In this document: positions 48,321 through 57,146 of the stretch, piece after piece | How the letters are laid out: each line of letters begins with the position of its first letter | Position numbering within the stretch: position 1 is the first letter of the stretch | Source of the DNA: Vulcanimicrobiota bacterium | GTDB taxonomy: Bacteria; Vulcanimicrobiota; Vulcanimicrobiia; Vulcanimicrobiales; Vulcanimicrobiaceae | Direction of reading: 5' to 3' | DNA: 64,000 nt | NCBI GenBank assembly: GCA_963795855.1 | Contig: CAWCIZ010000005.1 | Coordinates: forward strand, 1 to 64,000 | The notes under the pieces: model-generated | Told to the model about the DNA's origin: nothing | Seen by the model: only the letters and a program-made list of their open reading frames with translations | The model's database searches: none | Made by a program: the position numbers and the translations under genes

Positions 48321-49796
48321 ATGGCAACCGATGTTGCGGGTATCGCTCGGCCCGCGGGTGCTCTCGACGTCCCGGCCGCGCTCGAGCCGTATTCGGGTCC
48401 CTGGAACGCGCGTCTGGCGGCGCATCTGCTGCGGCGAGCGGGATTCGGCGGAACTTCCCAAGAGGTGGCGCGCCTCGCATCCATGCCGATGCACGCCGCG
48501 GTCGACTCGTTGGTGAATTTCGCTCCGACGAGTGCGCTGCCCGCGCCGCCGGATCTCTACGATCCGCGCGAGGCCCTGCGCGGAAACGCGATGCGGACGC
48601 TCGGCGCGCTGATGGGCGACTCTACGCAACGCCGCGAACTCGCGAAAGAGATCCGCAAGAACGAACGGCAATCGGTTATTGCACTGCAGCGCTGGTGGCT
48701 GAACCGTATGCTCGCCACGCCCGCGCCGCTGCAGGAAAAGATGGCGCTGTACTTTCACGGGCATTTCACAACCGCCACGATTCAGAAGGGCGTCACGCCG
48801 CAGATGACGTTCGACCAGAATCAGTTGTTCCGCGACAACGCGCTCGGAAATCTGCGCGAGCTCACCTGGAGCGTCTCGACCAATCCGGCGATGATGATCT
48901 ACCTGGACAACGCGCGCAGCGACGCGCAGCACCCGAACGAGAACTACGCGCGCGAATTGATGGAACTCTTCACGCTGGGCGTCGATCATTACACGGAAAA
49001 CGACGTGCGTGAATCCGCGCGCGCGTGGACCGGGTGGATCGTTCCGCGCCGGACCGGGAAAGCGCTGTTCGTTCCGGGCCGCCACGATGCCGGCGTAAAA
49101 ACGTTCCTCGGCAAAACCGGAAATTTCACGGGCCGCGACATCGTCGATATCATTTATCAGCAGCCGGCGTGCACGTTGTTCTGGGCAAACAACCTGCTGA
49201 ACTTCTTCGTCTACAACAACCCCGAACCCCAACTCGCGAATGCGGTTGCCGCGCTGATTCGCAAGAACGATTACAATCTTCGCCCCGTGATGTCGACGCT
49301 GCTCCGAAGCAACGTCTTTTATTCCGGACGCGCGTATCGCGCTCTCGTCAAGAGCCCGGTCGAGTTCGTCATCGGAACGTACAAGGCGTTCGATGTAGCG
49401 GAACTCGACGAAAGCGCGCAGCGTGCCCTGGTTCAAATGGGACAGATTCTCTTTTATCCGCCGAACGTTGCCGGCTGGCCGGGCGGTGCGAACTGGCTGA
49501 CCAGTCAAACGGTAATCGCGCGCGAAAATTTCGTCGCCGGGCTGATGAACTCACCCATGATGAACGGCGAGCAGTGGCTGCAGCAGATTCCACTCAAGGC
49601 GAGCGCCGCCGCGTCGCAGCTCGTAAGCACCGTTCTCTACGGGGACGCATCGCCAAGCGCGGTCGCGCAGCTCGCCGAGTATCTGAACGGCAGCGGCACG
49701 TCGGCGCTCGGGATGCTTTCCGGCGAAAACTATCAAGAACGGGTGCGGGGCGCGGCCTATCTCACCATGGCGATGCCCGCGTACCAGTTGAACTAA
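48321..49796 (+). CDS. DUF1800 family protein
   Basis: AAHLLRRAGFG, PNENYARELMELFTLG, PPNVAGW. Confidence 0.9.
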   Translation: MATDVAGIARPAGALDVPAALEPYSGPWNARLAAHLLRRAGFGGTSQEVARLASMPMHAAVDSLVNFAPTSALPAPPDLYDPREALRGNAMRTLGALMGDSTQRRELAKEIRKNERQSVIALQRWWLNRMLATPAPLQEKMALYFHGHFTTATIQKGVTPQMTFDQNQLFRDNALGNLRELTWSVSTNPAMMIYLDNARSDAQHPNENYARELMELFTLGVDHYTENDVRESARAWTGWIVPRRTGKALFVPGRHDAGVKTFLGKTGNFTGRDIVDIIYQQPACTLFWANNLLNFFVYNNPEPQLANAVAALIRKNDYNLRPVMSTLLRSNVFYSGRAYRALVKSPVEFVIGTYKAFDVAELDESAQRALVQMGQILFYPPNVAGWPGGANWLTSQTVIARENFVAGLMNSPMMNGEQWLQQIPLKASAAASQLVSTVLYGDASPSAVAQLAEYLNGSGTSALGMLSGENYQERVRGAAYLTMAMPAYQLN

Positions 49797-49808
49797 GTGG
49801 GAGGCTTT

Positions 49809-49938
49809 ATGTTGCGACCGGAGCGGCTTTCAAACAAACTTCTGTCGGCAGTATGTGTATGCGCGCCGTCATTTGGGGGCCCCATGCTTTGCATGGGGGG
49901 CGCGCAGGTTAGACCGGAGCGCCTTTCAATATGAAACG
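49809..49938 (+). repeat. Structured start-codon-associated repeat, copy A (contains 41-aa uORF 49809-49934)
   Basis: Homologous to 56368-56470 (minus); TGCGCGCC/GGCGCGCA stem with inner hairpin. Confidence 0.85.
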
Positions 49939-51151
49939 AAGCCAATTTCTCACCGGCGCCCTCAGCGGACTCGCCGTGATCGCGAATACCAACCACGTTT
50001 TCGCGCAAGCACTTAGCCAAACGCCGTTGCCGGGATTGCCCGGCGCGCAGAACCGTTGCTTGCTCATAGTGAATCTGCAAGGCGGAAACGACGGACTGAA
50101 TTGTGTCGTGCCGCACGGCGACGCGCGCTACTACCAGATGCGGCCGTCGATTGCGGTCCCGAGCAGCGACGTACTCGCGATCGACGCGCAGACGGGTTTC
50201 AATCCCCAGATGCGTTCGCTCAAGAGCCTTTACGATCGCGGTCTGGTCGCGGTCGTTCAAAGCGTCGGGTACCCGAATCCCGATCACTCGCATTTTCGTT
50301 CGACGGAGATCTGGCAGACCGCCGTTCCGGACAAATACGAACACACGGGTTGGCTGGGACGGTATTTGGACGAAGCGAATTTGCCGAAAGAGAACCTTTT
50401 CAACGGCGTCGCGCTCGCCCAAGTGCTGCCGGAAGTGCTCGTGGCGGGTCACGTCGACGTGCCCGCAATCGCGCAGATACGCGGGTACGGATTGCTGGGC
50501 GATCGCAATCGCGACGAGCGCGCCGCGTACGGCCGTGTCGTCAACGACACGCGTCTGCCGTTCACCTCACCGTATTTGGCGCACGTGATGGAGATCGAAG
50601 ATCACGCGCAAAAAGGTTCGGAGGAGCTGCCCAAACTGATCGCGGGATACAAGCCGGCGGGAAGCTATCCGGCGACGCCGCTGGGGCGCAGTCTCTCGCT
50701 CGCGGCACAGATCGTCGGGAGCAAAACGGCCACGCGCGTCATCTACGTTCAGCACGGATCCTTCGACACGCACGTAAGCCAAAAGGGCACGCAGGACCTT
50801 TTGCTCGGCGAGTTCTCGGACGCGATTAAGGCGTTTTACGACGATCTCGCCGCGCACGGCAACGATAAACGCGTGCTGACGATGACGTTTTCGGAATTCG
50901 GGCGGCGCATCCAAGAAAATGCCAGCCGTGGAACCGACCATGGCGAAGGTTCGCCGCTGTTCCTCATCGGCGGCGGCGTGAAGGGCGGCTTGTACGGAAC
51001 CTCCGCCGACCTATCGGACACGAACATGGGCAACGTGCGCTTTCAGACCGACTTCCGCAGCGTGTACGCGACAGTACTCGAACGATGGCTCGGCCAGCCT
51101 TCACGTACGGTCCTCCGCGGCGCGTTCCCTCAAATCGCCGTGTTGGCCTGA
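49931..51151 (+). CDS. DUF1501 family protein (Tat-like signal)
   Basis: LQGGNDGLN, DHSHF, FDTH, FSEFGRR..EN..GTDHG. Confidence 0.9.
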   Translation: MKRSQFLTGALSGLAVIANTNHVFAQALSQTPLPGLPGAQNRCLLIVNLQGGNDGLNCVVPHGDARYYQMRPSIAVPSSDVLAIDAQTGFNPQMRSLKSLYDRGLVAVVQSVGYPNPDHSHFRSTEIWQTAVPDKYEHTGWLGRYLDEANLPKENLFNGVALAQVLPEVLVAGHVDVPAIAQIRGYGLLGDRNRDERAAYGRVVNDTRLPFTSPYLAHVMEIEDHAQKGSEELPKLIAGYKPAGSYPATPLGRSLSLAAQIVGSKTATRVIYVQHGSFDTHVSQKGTQDLLLGEFSDAIKAFYDDLAAHGNDKRVLTMTFSEFGRRIQENASRGTDHGEGSPLFLIGGGVKGGLYGTSADLSDTNMGNVRFQTDFRSVYATVLERWLGQPSRTVLRGAFPQIAVLA

Positions 51152-51274
51152 TCGCGCGCAGGGCGGCCCTACCGATGTGACAAATGTCCGAGGCCAGCGC
51201 ATGGGCATGTTCCTGACATAGGCCTCATGGACTACGCGCGACGGGATGTGGTGACGTATGGGAGTGGCGCGAGC

Positions 51275-51676
51275 ATGAAGCTCCTGGAGCCCGAGGGGTC
51301 GTTCGACGCTCCAAGCACAGAGGCGGGTCTTCCGCCGCGGGGCACGCCGAAGAATTATCTGATGGCTTGGCTGCTGGTTATGCTGAAGGAGCACAACCTG
51401 CACGGCTACGAGATCATGAAGGAACTCAGGCTGCAGTTCGGCGTGATGTCGGAGCCCGGCAGCGTATACCGAGCGTTGCGCCAGCTGGAGCGCGACGGCT
51501 ACATTTCATCTTGGTGGGATCCGAAAGAACAGGGTCCGGCGCGCCGCGTTTACACCTTGACCGGCGAAGGAGGCCGCGCGCTCGTGTTGTGGAGCGTCGC
51601 GCTCGAGCAATACCGCTCGCATCTGGACGCGTTTTTCACGCTGTACAGCGGCCAGTGGCACGCCGTCGGGGAGTAA
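51275..51676 (+). CDS. PadR-family regulator (PhaQ-like)
   Basis: HGYEIMKEL, GSVYRALRQLERDG, GPARRVYTLT. Confidence 0.85.
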   Translation: MKLLEPEGSFDAPSTEAGLPPRGTPKNYLMAWLLVMLKEHNLHGYEIMKELRLQFGVMSEPGSVYRALRQLERDGYISSWWDPKEQGPARRVYTLTGEGGRALVLWSVALEQYRSHLDAFFTLYSGQWHAVGE

Positions 51677-51679
51677 CGC

Positions 51680-52475
51680 CGTTCGCGAAATTCTCTTTCT
51701 AGGCACCGGCGGCGCGCGGTTCGTCGTCGCGCGCCAGATTCGCGCGTCCGGCGGCATGTGGATGCGCTTCGGGTCCACGCAACTGCACGTCGACCCGGGG
51801 CCGGGTGCCCTCGTGCGCGCCCTCGCGCAAGTTCCGCCGTGCAATCCGCGCGAGCTTGACGGGATCGTCCTCTCGCACAAGCATCTGGATCATGCGAATG
51901 ACGTCAACGTCATGATTGAAGCGATGACGTCCGGCGGATTCCGGCGCCGCGGCGTGCTGCTGGCACCGCACGATGCACTCGAAGGGGAGCATGTCGTTCT
52001 GCCCTACGCGCAGCGTTTCGTCGAACGGATCGAGGTCTCGAAGGAACGCAGCGGGCCATACCGCATCGGCGAAGTCGAAATCCGCACCTCGATCAAGCAC
52101 GTGCATGCGGTGGAAACGTATGGCATGCATTTCCGGCACGGCGAGCGCACCGTTTCGTATCTGCCTTGCGGACGGTACTTCGAAGACCTCGCTGAAGACT
52201 ACGCCGCGCATGCGCCCGACGTGCTCGTCATCAACGTTCTGCGCTACCGCGACACCATGGACGTCGATCACATGACGTTCGACGAAGCAAAAACCGTGAT
52301 AAGCGCGGTTCGTCCGCGCGTTGCCGTCATGCAGCATTTCGGAACGAAGATGCTCGAACAGAATCCGCCTCGACTCGCGCGCGAACTCGAAGACGAGCTG
52401 GGGCTGAGAGTGATTGCGGCGTACGACAATATGCGTCTGGACGTCGATACGGAAATAGGCGCTCTTGCCGGTTGA
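51680..52475 (+). CDS. Metallo-beta-lactamase-fold hydrolase (start uncertain)
   Basis: FLGTGGARF, DPGPGAL, SHKHLDH. Confidence 0.85.
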
Positions 52476-52890
52476 GATCGTGCGCGTTCAGTCCGACGCC
52501 GTGCTCGAATTCGTGCGGCGGACCGAGCGTGAAGCGCTGAAAACGTTTTACGATTTCAGCGTCATCTGGCACGAGCAGACGCATCACCTCGCCGCCATGG
52601 ACGATGGTACGATTGTGGGCGTTTCGGAAATTCGAATTGCCGCTTCGCTCGCGAACGTGCAGCGCATCGTCGTGTTGCCGGATCGGCGCCGCGCCGGCAT
52701 TGGGCGCGCGCTGCTCGAAGGCGCGGCCGAAGTCGCAAACTACTACAACTGCCACAAGATGACCGCGCTCGTCCCGCATCGCAGCGGTGCCCAAACGTTT
52801 TTCGAACGCTGCGATTATCGCGAAGAAGCGGTGCTGCCGCAGCACACCTTCAAACTAGATATGGCGGCGATGCGGAAGTTTCTTCTGTAA
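52465..52890 (+). CDS. GNAT acetyltransferase
   Basis: VLPDRRRAGIGRALL. Confidence 0.85.
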   Translation: MPVEIVRVQSDAVLEFVRRTEREALKTFYDFSVIWHEQTHHLAAMDDGTIVGVSEIRIAASLANVQRIVVLPDRRRAGIGRALLEGAAEVANYYNCHKMTALVPHRSGAQTFFERCDYREEAVLPQHTFKLDMAAMRKFLL

Positions 52891-53862
52891 GGGCCGGCGG
52901 AGAATCCGGCCGACAGGCTCCCACGCGCGTTGCAGCTTTCCGCGCGCTCGCAGTGCGCCGTCGTAGAGATAGACGCTGCCGCGTGCGGAATTCGCCGTAA
53001 CCAGCGGTCCGCCGCCTCCCACCACCGCCTGCGCGTCGGTCTGAGAACCGGCCAGCGACGCACCGCTGGAAAAGCCTGCGAAGACGTGCCCCATCGCGCT
53101 GTGCGCGTCGATGCTCGCGCCTCCGCCCGCGACGCCGATCGCGACGTTACCGTTCTCGGATTCGAACCGCGCGATTCCCGGCACGAACGTTCCGTTGTCG
53201 TAAGCGATGCTGCCGTTGATGCTGCTTGCCTCGATCTCGCGCACGTTGCAGTTTTCGAACACGATATTTCCGGCGCCGGTACGCGCGCGGATACTGTTGA
53301 ACGCGGAGTTCGCAACGAAAATTTTACCGCGCGCGACCTCCGCATACGCATCGCCGCTGACATTCCGTAAGACGAGAGCGCCGGCGTGCACCAGCGCCAC
53401 CAGCGTTCCGCTGCGGTAGCCGTTCATGGCGATGCTGCCTCGGCCCACAACGACCCAAACGAGCGCCGTCGAACTCGGAATCGTCAACGTAACGTCCGCG
53501 CCTTGATCGCCGCCGAATATTACGACGCCGTCATGCGGCGTCGCGGCAATGGCTCCGAGCGGAAAACTTTCCGGCGGCAGAACCGCGGGCCCGTTCGGCG
53601 TTTGTATCGGCGTGGAAAAAATCGTGACTTCGGGCGGAAGCGCGTTTGCGACCACATCGGGATCGACGCGGCGTGCGTGAATCTGCCTGGTCGATGCAAT
53701 CTGGACCTGCGGCCGGTTCCACGTGTGAATAGTTACGGAACCCGAACGCATCTGCATGCGGATCACCGGCGACCCCGAAACGGAAATAACCTGCTGGGCG
53801 CGCGCGTACGCGGGCCAGCTCGCCAGCGCCGCCAGAAGCAGAACGGAAAGGAAACGGGTCAC
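52855..53862 (-). CDS. Secreted DUF4097/adhesin-like beta-repeat protein
   Basis: Signal peptide; repeated S.NG.I/V beta-strand units. Confidence 0.7.
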   Translation of the reverse strand: MTRFLSVLLLAALASWPAYARAQQVISVSGSPVIRMQMRSGSVTIHTWNRPQVQIASTRQIHARRVDPDVVANALPPEVTIFSTPIQTPNGPAVLPPESFPLGAIAATPHDGVVIFGGDQGADVTLTIPSSTALVWVVVGRGSIAMNGYRSGTLVALVHAGALVLRNVSGDAYAEVARGKIFVANSAFNSIRARTGAGNIVFENCNVREIEASSINGSIAYDNGTFVPGIARFESENGNVAIGVAGGGASIDAHSAMGHVFAGFSSGASLAGSQTDAQAVVGGGGPLVTANSARGSVYLYDGALRARGKLQRAWEPVGRILRRPLQKKLPHRRHI

Positions 53863-53903
53863 ACGACCATTGTACGAAGCGCCCTTGCTGCGAGGATGAA
53901 AAT

Positions 53904-55307
53904 TCAATGAATACGCGGCAAACGCACGCGCATCAGCGTGCCGCCGCCCTCCGGGCGTTCGGCATCCACGCGTCCGCCGTGCACGCGCGCGATCGAACGC
54001 ACGATGGCAAGGCCCAGTCCCGTCCCGGGGACTTCACGCGTTCGCGATTTATCCGTGCGGTAGAATCGATCGAAGATCAGCGGCAGCTCGCCGGGATCGA
54101 TGCCCGGACCGGTGTCCTGTACTTCTGCGAGGGCTTCCCCGTTCGACGCGCGCACGCGAACCGTGACGCCGCCGCGTTCGGTAAATTTGATCGCATTGTC
54201 GATGAGGTTGGTGATCATCTGCCGGACCAGCGCCGCATCGCCGTCGACGATCGGCGACTCGCCGTCCGCTTCCAGGCGCAAATCCAACCCTTTGTCGCCC
54301 GCACGCTGAGACGTCGCGTTCACCGCATCGCGCGCAACCGCCGCCAATGAAAACGGCTCTTTGGGAATCGCTTCACCGGAATCGGCTTTCGCGAGCGTGA
54401 GCATGCCGTTGACCATGTCGGCGAGCGACGCGCTTTCCGCGATGATGGTCTGCAAACTTTCCTTGCGCACGGTTTCGTCGCGATCGCCCCAACGCGCCAG
54501 CATCTGCGCGTTTGCGTTGATCGACGTCAACGGCGTTTTGAGTTCGTGGGACGCATCGGAAATGAACTGACGTTCGCGCGCGAACGCTTCTTCCAAACGG
54601 GCGAGCAGATCGTCGAACGTTTCTGCGAGCCGGCCCACTTCGTCTCGCCGCCCCTTCCAACGCAGACGGCGGTGCAGTCCTTCCGACCCCATCCCGCGCA
54701 TCGCTGCGGCGAGTTCGTTGATTGGCGTCGTAATCTGTGAGGCTAGCACGAATGAAACGAAAGTTACGGCGACGATCGCGATCAGCAAAATGACGGCGAT
54801 GGACCACTCCGTCTGCCGGAACGCACGATAGAGCTGATCGAGCGGCTCGCCGACCTGTACGACCAGCGCGTGGTTCGCGCTGATCAGTACTTGCGCGGCG
54901 ACGAGAAACGGGCGTCCGTCTACCGCGACCTCACGCATCGTCGCAGGCGTCGCCGGCGTTACGCCAGGATTGCCGAACGTCGGTATCGCGCCCATGTTGA
55001 AACTTTTCGCAACGGGATAGCCGCGCACGTCGTCGACTTCGACGAACGTGCTCGTCGACGACCACCGCTCCAGATTGTCCGGATTCTCGAGCAGCAGCAG
55101 CGAATCGCCGCCCTCGGTGAACAGAAACGAATTGGGCGAGGGAGCCGCCGCGGTGCGAATGTCGGCGAGCGTCGATGCGACGTGATCGCGCGCCTGCGTT
55201 CGCAGAATGGACTCGAACCGCATCGTGATCGCGACCCCGAGCGCAACCGCCACGACGACGAGCAGCAGCGCATACCAGACGGTAATGCGCCACCGTAACG
55301 AACTCAT
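53904..55307 (-). CDS. HAMP sensor histidine kinase
   Basis: DASHELKTPL, NLIDNAIKF, GTGLGLAI. Confidence 0.95.
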   Translation of the reverse strand: MSSLRWRITVWYALLLVVVAVALGVAITMRFESILRTQARDHVASTLADIRTAAAPSPNSFLFTEGGDSLLLLENPDNLERWSSTSTFVEVDDVRGYPVAKSFNMGAIPTFGNPGVTPATPATMREVAVDGRPFLVAAQVLISANHALVVQVGEPLDQLYRAFRQTEWSIAVILLIAIVAVTFVSFVLASQITTPINELAAAMRGMGSEGLHRRLRWKGRRDEVGRLAETFDDLLARLEEAFARERQFISDASHELKTPLTSINANAQMLARWGDRDETVRKESLQTIIAESASLADMVNGMLTLAKADSGEAIPKEPFSLAAVARDAVNATSQRAGDKGLDLRLEADGESPIVDGDAALVRQMITNLIDNAIKFTERGGVTVRVRASNGEALAEVQDTGPGIDPGELPLIFDRFYRTDKSRTREVPGTGLGLAIVRSIARVHGGRVDAERPEGGGTLMRVRLPRIH

Positions 55308-55310
55308 CGG

Positions 55311-55991
55311 CTAATCTTTGATCGTATAACCGACGCCGCGCACGGTGGTGATCAGTTTCTCGTCAAAGCCTTCATCGATCTTGCCGCGCAGATACCGGAT
55401 GTAGACGTCGATCAAATTCGAGTCGCCGAGGAAATCGCTGCCCCAAACGCCGTTGAAAAGCTCGTCGCGGGTATGCACCTTGTTCCGGTGCAGCAGCAGA
55501 TACTCCAGCAGCGCGTATTCTTTTGCCGTCAGCGCGATTTCTTTGCCGTCGCGGCGCACTTCATGGCGGTCGCGATCCATGATCAGGTCCCGATAGACGA
55601 TCACGTTTTCCGCCGGCTGTTTGTCGCGCAGCCGCGCGCGCACGCGAGCCAGCAGTTCTTCGGTCGAAAAGGGCTTTGTGAGATAGTCGTCCGCACCGAT
55701 GTCCAAACCGGCGACGCGTTCGGGCACGCGATCTTTCGCGGTCAGCATGATGATCGGCACGCGGCTCTTCGCGCGCACGCGTTTGCAGACTTCCATGCCG
55801 TCCATACGCGGAAGCATGAGGTCGAGGAGAATGAGGTCGGGCTCCTTGAGCGCCAGTTCCAAACCGGCAAGGCCGTCGCGCGCTACGGCGACGCGGTACC
55901 CTTCATGTTCGAGTTCCAACTGCAGCACGCGGCTGATCGCCGCATCGTCTTCAATGACGAGAATGTTGTGCGCGCGCGCCGTCTTCTCCAT
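55311..55991 (-). CDS. OmpR-family response regulator
   Basis: LDLMLP, GADDYLTKPF, TVRGVGY. Confidence 0.95.
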   Translation of the reverse strand: MEKTARAHNILVIEDDAAISRVLQLELEHEGYRVAVARDGLAGLELALKEPDLILLDLMLPRMDGMEVCKRVRAKSRVPIIMLTAKDRVPERVAGLDIGADDYLTKPFSTEELLARVRARLRDKQPAENVIVYRDLIMDRDRHEVRRDGKEIALTAKEYALLEYLLLHRNKVHTRDELFNGVWGSDFLGDSNLIDVYIRYLRGKIDEGFDEKLITTVRGVGYTIKD

Positions 55992-56000
55992 ACGGTAGAG

Positions 56001-56375
56001 TTATCGGCGCGTCGCTCGCTGATACCCCGCCGCTCCGGTTAAATTCAACTGAGAAATCCAAAACGTCGCGCCGCCGCCGAGCGCGATCCAGAACAGGGTG
56101 CCAGGCTGCGAGAAGAACGCCAGAGCCTGATTACCGATGGACTCCGCCGAAGCGACTTCATGCGCTCCGCTGCCGCGCAGGACGAAGATCAGCAGCCATA
56201 CCATCGCGGCGCAAAGGGCGCCGTACAGCCACACTTCCCACGGCGGCACCGACGCGGCCACGGGCACGCGGTAAATGGTCGAGGCCAGAATCGACTGGCG
56301 CAGATCCGCCGGCGGCTCCTCGAGGTCGAGCGCGAAGAGCGCGCGTTCCAGATCTTGATCGTCGTAGCGTTTCAT
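56001..56375 (-). CDS. Putative membrane anti-sigma factor
   Basis: Downstream of ECF sigma; EEPPADLRQSIL followed by two TM helices. Confidence 0.65.
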   Translation of the reverse strand: MKRYDDQDLERALFALDLEEPPADLRQSILASTIYRVPVAASVPPWEVWLYGALCAAMVWLLIFVLRGSGAHEVASAESIGNQALAFFSQPGTLFWIALGGGATFWISQLNLTGAAGYQRATRR

Positions 56376-56470
56376 ATTTTAAGGCGCTCCGTCCTAGACT
56401 GCGCGCCCCCCGCCTTGCGGGGCCCCCGCGATATGGCGCGCATAAACATTCCGGTCGTATGAACTTTCAT
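56368..56470 (-). repeat. Structured start-codon-associated repeat, copy B (contains 32-aa uORF 56470-56372)
   Basis: Homologous to copy A; ATGAAA duplicated at both ends. Confidence 0.85.
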
Positions 56471-57057
56471 CCCTGTACCCCCGCGGTGTCTTGGTTCAAG
56501 ATGCGCCGGAGCTGTTCTTTGGCGCGGAACAAATGCGTCTTTACCGTACCCATCGGCACGCCCAGTACGTTTGCGATTTCGTCGTACTGCTGCCCTTGCA
56601 GATGATACAGCGTGATGACGGTGCGGTACTTTTCGGGAAGTGCGGCGATGGCTTGCCGCAGGCGCTCGGCTTCGTCGTGCGCGATCGCCGTGTTCTCGGG
56701 CCCGGCGGAGGGGTCGGCGCGTTCGGGCAGCTCCTCGTTCGAGAAGCGCTTGCGGCGGGACAGCCGGTCGCAGCAGGCGTGGTAGGTGATTGCGAAGAGC
56801 CACGTCGAGAATTTCGCGCCAGGCTTGAAGGTGCGAAGGCTGCGATAGGCTTTGAAAAACGCTTCTTGCGCCACGTCGCGCGCTTCTTCCACGTCTCGGA
56901 GCGTGCGGTACGCCAAATGGTAAACCGCGCGATCGTACCGCTCTACCAGGGTTGCGAATGCGTCGGAACGCCCCGCGAGCGTCTGGGCCACGAGTGCTTG
57001 GTCCTCAATCAATGACGGCGGGTCGATGAAAGGCGCCTCCGGCAGTACCGCAACCAC
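56467..57057 (-). CDS. ECF sigma factor (SigW-like)
   Basis: DVAQEAFFKAY, FSTWLFAI, GTVKTHLFRA. Start at GTG 57057 or ATG 57066. Confidence 0.9.
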   Translation of the reverse strand: MVAVLPEAPFIDPPSLIEDQALVAQTLAGRSDAFATLVERYDRAVYHLAYRTLRDVEEARDVAQEAFFKAYRSLRTFKPGAKFSTWLFAITYHACCDRLSRRKRFSNEELPERADPSAGPENTAIAHDEAERLRQAIAALPEKYRTVITLYHLQGQQYDEIANVLGVPMGTVKTHLFRAKEQLRRILNQDTAGVQG

Positions 57058-57065
57058 GTCCAACA

Positions 57066-57146
57066 TACGGACAAAGGCTGCGTAGTGTTTCGAACCGTCC
57101 GCCGCCTGGCCCCGCGGCCATGAAACACTGAAGGCGCCGTGCCGTA
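57066..57146. promoter_or_regulatory. Back-to-back SigW-type promoters
   Basis: Plus strand TGAAAC-N16-CGTA (57121-57146); minus strand CGAAAC-N17-CGTA (57092-57066). Confidence 0.75.

Follow-up and report, generated by a model that had tools for sequence, protein, structure and literature searches.

Here we have followed up a short structured element that occurs twice in a 64,000-nucleotide stretch of DNA from a Vulcanimicrobiota bacterium (contig CAWCIZ010000005.1, positions 1 to 64,000; hereafter the window), once ahead of a DUF1501 gene (copy A) and once behind a gene for an extracytoplasmic function (ECF)-type sigma factor (copy B). We propose, as the probable explanation, that both copies belong to a family of structured repeats of roughly 110 bp, likely mobile but non-autonomous, which stand at the starts of genes in operons, and that a reading frame crossing the insert likely relays ribosomes so that the gene stays expressed. 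The family itself, its position, the empty sites, the covarying stems and the frame statistics have been demonstrated; mechanistic targeting of start codons and neutrality for expression we infer.

The original prediction had read a dispersed family into the two copies, and a scan of the genome and its relatives with a hidden Markov model (HMM) and sequence patterns bears this out: the genome that holds the window (G000; 3.06 Mb, 62% GC, 86% complete) yields 61 matches to an iterated HMM, spread over 39 loci and often in tandem arrays, and the window copies are two of these matches. Within the window the hairpin motif matches at these two places only (shuffle mean 0.01). Across genomes, a 27-nt pattern allowing one mismatch finds the element in 41 of the 113 host-family genomes and in one of 87 from elsewhere in the phylum, copy numbers ranging from 0 to 39. 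Named records that carry it belong almost exclusively to Vulcanimicrobiota/Eremiobacterota, one being labelled Limnocylindria. It was not found in viral contigs, plasmids or phages, Rfam covariance models gave no match over it, and no published description of this repeat family was found in a search of article texts mostly outside subscription journals. Copies at different G000 loci reach at most 82% identity (median 69%) and none are near-identical, so that the family is old or fast-diverging in this genome.

The location at start codons seen in the window extends to the family. An ATG, GTG or TTG lies 6-8 nt past the 3' hairpin, P3, at 24 of the 39 G000 loci; among the terminal copies of three sets (63/109, 36/58 and 42/69), 141 of 236 have a gene start at +5 to +8 past P3, and most remaining sense copies stand ahead of a spacer with its own Shine-Dalgarno (SD)-like motif. 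Thirty-four of the 39 G000 loci lie between co-directional genes (32 sense, 2 antisense), two lie ahead of a divergent pair's first gene and three are at non-coding RNA regions; none falls at a convergent-gene junction, though 445 of 3039 called junctions are convergent. Antisense-looking copies number 30 among the 236 terminal ones. The targets, named by recognising N-termini and not by database call, are largely core genes, including those for ribosomal proteins, ATP synthase, prfA, ffh, glmS and smc. At two G000 loci (contig positions C4:108183 and C3:775316) the element overlaps the upstream gene at its end, apparently supplying its stop codon.

Both window junctions have empty counterparts in most relatives. 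All 25 family genomes shown, a tally that excludes four unpublished ones, have site B empty, 22 of the 25 with a 4-nt gene overlap; within the genus it is empty in 6 of 7 genomes and filled in G003. Site A is without the element in 27 of 28 family genomes (G026 is filled), and within the genus it is filled in G001, empty in four genomes and occupied by a different repeat in G007. Furthermore, over 21 ribosomal-operon regions the filled junctions differ from genome to genome. The end duplication averages ATG(A) only: identity is 0.56 at base 4 against 0.45 and near background beyond, and the 6-bp duplication suggested by copy B therefore fails as a rule, single cases reaching 7-11 nt.

The relay frame was scored from the ATG or GTG closest to the upstream stop, picked blind to read-through. 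It stops within -2 to +8 of the downstream start in 69 of 77 copies, far above the 11/77 and 5/77 left after a 1- or 2-nt shift, so that the read-through frame first described for the window copies holds well beyond them; held-out sets gave 12/13 and 28/30, and one copy per target gene gave 48/55 against 7 and 5 in the shift controls. The stop is at +4 in 31 copies, -1 in 22, 0 in 8, +8 in 5 and -2 in 3. Element length modulo 3 is 2 in 35 copies, 1 in 31 and 0 in 11, a spread that shows neither the peptide nor a 2-mod-3 rule to be conserved: the ATG-to-ATG length proposed as a rule fits only 35/77, and copies of other lengths stop on the element's own TAA or TAG. Nor did the idea of a conserved upstream open reading frame (ORF) encoded by the element survive, since internal ATGs are random in frame; element-internal SD plus ATG combinations fell in frames 10/6/4 and were rejected as such an ORF. 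The relay peptide itself is probably functionless. Copies at the same site preserve the frame despite indels (site B, 124 vs 95 bp; site A, 128 vs 122 bp), six of seven evaluable antisense copies (of 30) read through the element, and arrays often hold one long frame or chain (20 of 28 evaluable G000 loci, a figure with no null comparison). Some arrays consist of near-identical units, some with duplicated upstream host sequence (G000 C2:79305-79746, C3:350343-350769, C3:360446-360796 and C1:397287-397528), and the smc array preserves a single open frame of 121 codons.

A full type I copy consists, from 5' to 3', of a stem P1 round a 24-25-nt variable loop, a GGGGG linker, a variable hairpin P2, the invariant hairpin P3 and an AT-rich tail, and three alternative 5' modules occur on one shared 3' part (189, 31 and 28 of 250 copies). 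In an alignment of 20 copies assembled for this analysis, whose relatedness inflates the covariation figures, the stems are paired in 99.7% of 349 cells with 19 double changes (0/500 shuffles). P3's 3-bp stem is paired in 247 of 250 copies, P1 variants pair over 6.3 bp as opposed to 4.85+-0.12 with swapped partners, and same-site copies have diverged in their loops but kept their stems. The 5' arm of P1 is missing from both window copies and present in the full-length copies that other genomes have at these junctions (G001 at site A, G003 at site B). The sequences, coordinates, 41-aa and 32-aa frames, TGA/ATG overlaps and ATG-to-ATG distances (122 and 95 bp) given for them in the original prediction are correct, and the features at the two junctions are as follows.

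48321..49796, + strand: DUF1800 gene, upstream neighbour at site A (ORF call; Pfam PF08811).
49799..49804, + strand: GGGAGG, SD-like motif ahead of the relay ATG, likely the native ribosome-binding site (RBS) (sequence; empty sites).
49809..49934, + strand: relay ORF of copy A, 41 aa, its TGA overlapping the DUF1501 ATG (translation).
49816..49833, + strand: imperfect duplicate of the element's 3' end (17/18 match to 49912-49929), putatively the remnant of a second unit.
49860..49867, + strand: 3' arm of stem P1, copy A; its 5' partner is missing from this copy but found in that of G001.
49875..49898, + strand: GGGGG linker and variable hairpin P2, copy A.
49899..49923, + strand: invariant 3' hairpin P3, copy A (GGCGC/GCGCC, 3x3 GNA/GNA loop, covarying 3-bp stem), with GGAG at 49916-49919.
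49924..49930, + strand: AT-rich tail running to the start codon, copy A.
49931..51151, + strand: DUF1501 gene, target of copy A (ORF call; Pfam PF07394).
56467..57066, - strand: ECF-type sigma factor gene, upstream neighbour at site B (Pfam Sigma70_r2 and r4_2).
56372..56470, - strand: relay ORF of copy B, 32 aa, opening at the ancestral ATGA overlap and closing at a rebuilt one.
56435..56442, - strand: 3' arm of stem P1, copy B; its 5' partner is missing from this copy but found in that of G003.
56408..56427, - strand: GGGGG linker and hairpin P2, copy B.
56383..56407, - strand: hairpin P3, copy B, with GGAG at 56390-56387.
56376..56382, - strand: AT-rich tail running to the start codon, copy B.
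56001..56375, - strand: 124-aa gene behind the sigma factor, target of copy B; anti-sigma by position only, with no Pfam match (ORF call).

At empty site A the relatives' spacers measure 5-39 nt, several of them with GGAG or GGGG. The invariant outer stem proposed for the window copies would join the orphaned 3' arm of P1 to the invariant 5' arm of P3, and it is not the helix that covaries; it is not supported, as its left arm covaries with the 5' arm deleted in both copies. When the two copies are folded, the predicted structure of each forms the 3' hairpin GGCGC..GCGCC and not that stem; the folding z-scores, -0.76 and -0.05, are not significant. Other candidate structures fared no better: covariation gives no support to the alternative pairing of a P1/P3 switch, an HDV-like ribozyme was considered and discarded by eye, and a guide loop complementary to its target, in the manner of IS110 bridge RNA, was rejected, with longest matches of 5.86 vs 5.88 nt over 95 copies. 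Among structural variants, one subfamily carries a conserved ~55-nt insertion in P2 (G000 C3:401502 and C4:173645; L210, L347, L357 and L437), and two genomes have a P2+P3-like module, in sense orientation, within the P12 loop of their RNase P RNA (L542:64-544, on G000 C1, and L112:146-608).

The 3' end of the element may play a part in initiation. P3 contains GGAG in 118 of 141 start-adjacent copies versus 15 of 38 sense copies whose start lies farther off, and nine start-adjacent G000 remnants keep little beyond this GGAG end; we infer that the motif, which is 10-12 nt away from the start and partly within a stem, acts as the SD sequence. Under the proposed mechanism, insertion would duplicate about ATG(A), and a start codon that stays behind where the gene originally began would open a short frame across the insert that stops at the new start. 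The AT-rich tail would provide stops in the other frames (TAA or TAG at -2 to 0; a TGA overlap at +4), so that several element lengths could be tolerated, and relay-breaking insertions in core operons would be purged. A relay ribosome may melt P3 and free GGAG as the SD sequence, and later deletions would then erode all but the last ~15 nt. It is conceivable, if doubtful, that an integration system recognises initiation sites themselves (whether ATG, GTG or TTG, or else the SD's 5' edge), brings the element there repeatedly and over time exchanges the host's RBSs in core operons for element-derived ones.

Several points weigh against the relay explanation. Copies in RNase P RNA and next to a tRNA stand away from starts; gene calls came from a purpose-built hexamer model; the search pattern is biased toward intact 3' ends; and related genomes have sites in common, so counts are not independent. 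Of the 141 start-adjacent copies, 64 had been left out before the relay test (30 without an upstream gene call, 13 in arrays or with long gaps, 21 without an ATG or GTG near the upstream stop), and if the last 21 are counted as having no relay, the figure becomes 69/98, which is not universal; likewise, 8 of the 28 evaluable G000 loci have no relay chain. The 82% maximum identity between G000 loci gives no sign of present activity, and no mobilising enzyme was identified in the searches made.

Some of these points would suit an origin without any targeting, in which insertion was broad, neutral copies were deleted and the survivors are those that took over a gene's initiation region. The age of the copies, the presence of some in RNase P RNA and near a tRNA, and the erosion evident in remnants cut to their GGAG end all fit such entrenchment, which is compatible with the relay part of our favoured explanation. 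We nevertheless regard it as unlikely, given that full-length copies exceed start-adjacent remnants (61 matches vs 9), that convergent junctions hold none of the 39 loci and that the spacing to the start is fixed within about 1 nt. More improbable still is a domesticated cis-regulatory RNA, whether a translation switch or a signal for processing or stability, that gene conversion has spread and whose structure is kept at each site for the benefit of the host. The stems retained by same-site copies with diverged loops, the ribosomal, ATP-synthase and other core targets and the strong sense bias (30/236 antisense-looking) speak for it; however, presence is patchy within one genus, different 5' modules occur at one site (the argR-like and flgB-like sites), antisense copies carry read-through frames too, tandem arrays exist, and the pairing that a switch would need shows no covariation.

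Hairpins and tandem arrays resemble bacterial interspersed mosaic elements (BIMEs), small GIY-YIG genes in the genus have another repeat family on their flanks and chimeras combining the two repeats occur, but a repetitive extragenic palindromic (REP)-like repeat moved in trans by an HUH nuclease (REP-associated tyrosine transposase, RAYT) or a GIY-YIG nuclease is very improbable, as Y1_Tnp is found in 0/8 genus genomes and 1/36 family relatives, 36 GIY-YIG loci adjoin no full copy (one weak partial match, E 0.039), and the copy-rich genomes G185 and G214 have only a uvrC-sized GIY-YIG match. Indeed, no RAYT flanked by the repeat co-occurs with it in genomes 72-99% complete, and the GIY-YIG matches in G000 come down to uvrC and a YhbQ-like gene without repeats. 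No Y1, reverse transcriptase or IS110 enzyme was found in G000, in a search that did not extend to DDE families, TnpB or HNH; a Y2 search gave no match there or in any control genome and is thus uninformative. Among 422 neighbouring ORFs, 401 have a G000 homologue and went no further in annotation, and the other 21 include no transposase family; G000 also has no multi-copy repeat the size of an insertion sequence. The only candidate for terminal inverted repeats is GGCGC/GCGCC, whose 5' copy covaries with an internal arm. The second repeat family (GTCATCCTGAG..TCGAAGG type) occurs at the same DUF1501 start in four genomes (L174, L183, L191 and L540) and flanks small GIY-YIG genes in a REPtron-like arrangement (L495, L496, L501, L504, L510-L512, L515, L517 and L529); its chimeras with the element, and an instance inside the P2 loop, are at L139 (the G021 rplN junction) and L280.

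The claim that this architecture had no description does not stand. In the review PMC12548453, mycobacterial interspersed repetitive units (MIRUs) are described as apparently mobile, inserting at start codons and carrying an ORF that is coupled, at -4 nt, to the target gene, which is proposed to make insertion harmless. Our element, too, is short and dispersed, its sites being filled in some genomes and empty in others, and is inserted at start codons, with a +4 stop in 31 of 77 copies comparable to the -4 coupling and 69 of 77 within -2 to +8. It works like a MIRU, which need not make it one. Supply et al., in 1997, reportedly wrote the primary MIRU paper, the source of that account. Unlike MIRUs, the element lives outside the mycobacterial phylum, its relay also ends at -2 to 0 or +8 (38/77), both orientations are used and the SD-like end is kept in remnants; going by description, three covarying stems and three exchangeable 5' modules also set it apart. 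The new aspects are the family, those stems, the use of both orientations and the decay to an SD-like end.

Rickettsia palindromic elements insert in frame inside proteins. As structured repeats of ~100-150 bp whose survival is tied to a reading frame they are similar, whereas our element sits between genes, though two G000 copies overlap the upstream gene's end; they are listed among the repeats in PMC3184786. That paper also describes Neisseria REP2 and Borrelia IR-A, which resemble the element in having two stem-loops inside a repeat that lies directly upstream of a gene and includes RBS and ATG, but carry a promoter and head genes, whereas the element here is mostly inside operons with a relay frame; they are weaker analogues than MIRUs. 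REP/BIME repeats with RAYT, as presented in PMC3733652, are likewise intergenic hairpins in tandem arrays; the element differs in having no GTAG/CGTC hairpin-foot tag (GTAG is only a rare variant inside P3), no co-occurring Y1 transposase and a fixed start-codon position.

A sequence-distinct MIRU-like family in another phylum shows selection on peptide-neutral relay ORFs, and its hundreds of filled and empty sites form a natural data set on the stop-start spacings that preserve translational coupling. The family further suggests a route for the rewriting of RBS sequences, allows comparative genomics to approach how such elements find start codons, and cautions annotators against spurious small ORFs.

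A few observations lie beside the element. RAYT-like genes with classical GTAG repeats, unrelated to it, occur in a different family of the same class (L295-L309), and G000 C2:104660-105005 holds a 24/27-bp tandem repeat array that is likewise unrelated. A weak Hammerhead_1 match at window positions 49321-49378, antisense inside DUF1800, scores 26.5 bits, below the gathering threshold of 34, and is probably due to chance. Finally, about five extra genes split the alpha operon between rpsM and rpsK at G000 C2:79300-87800.

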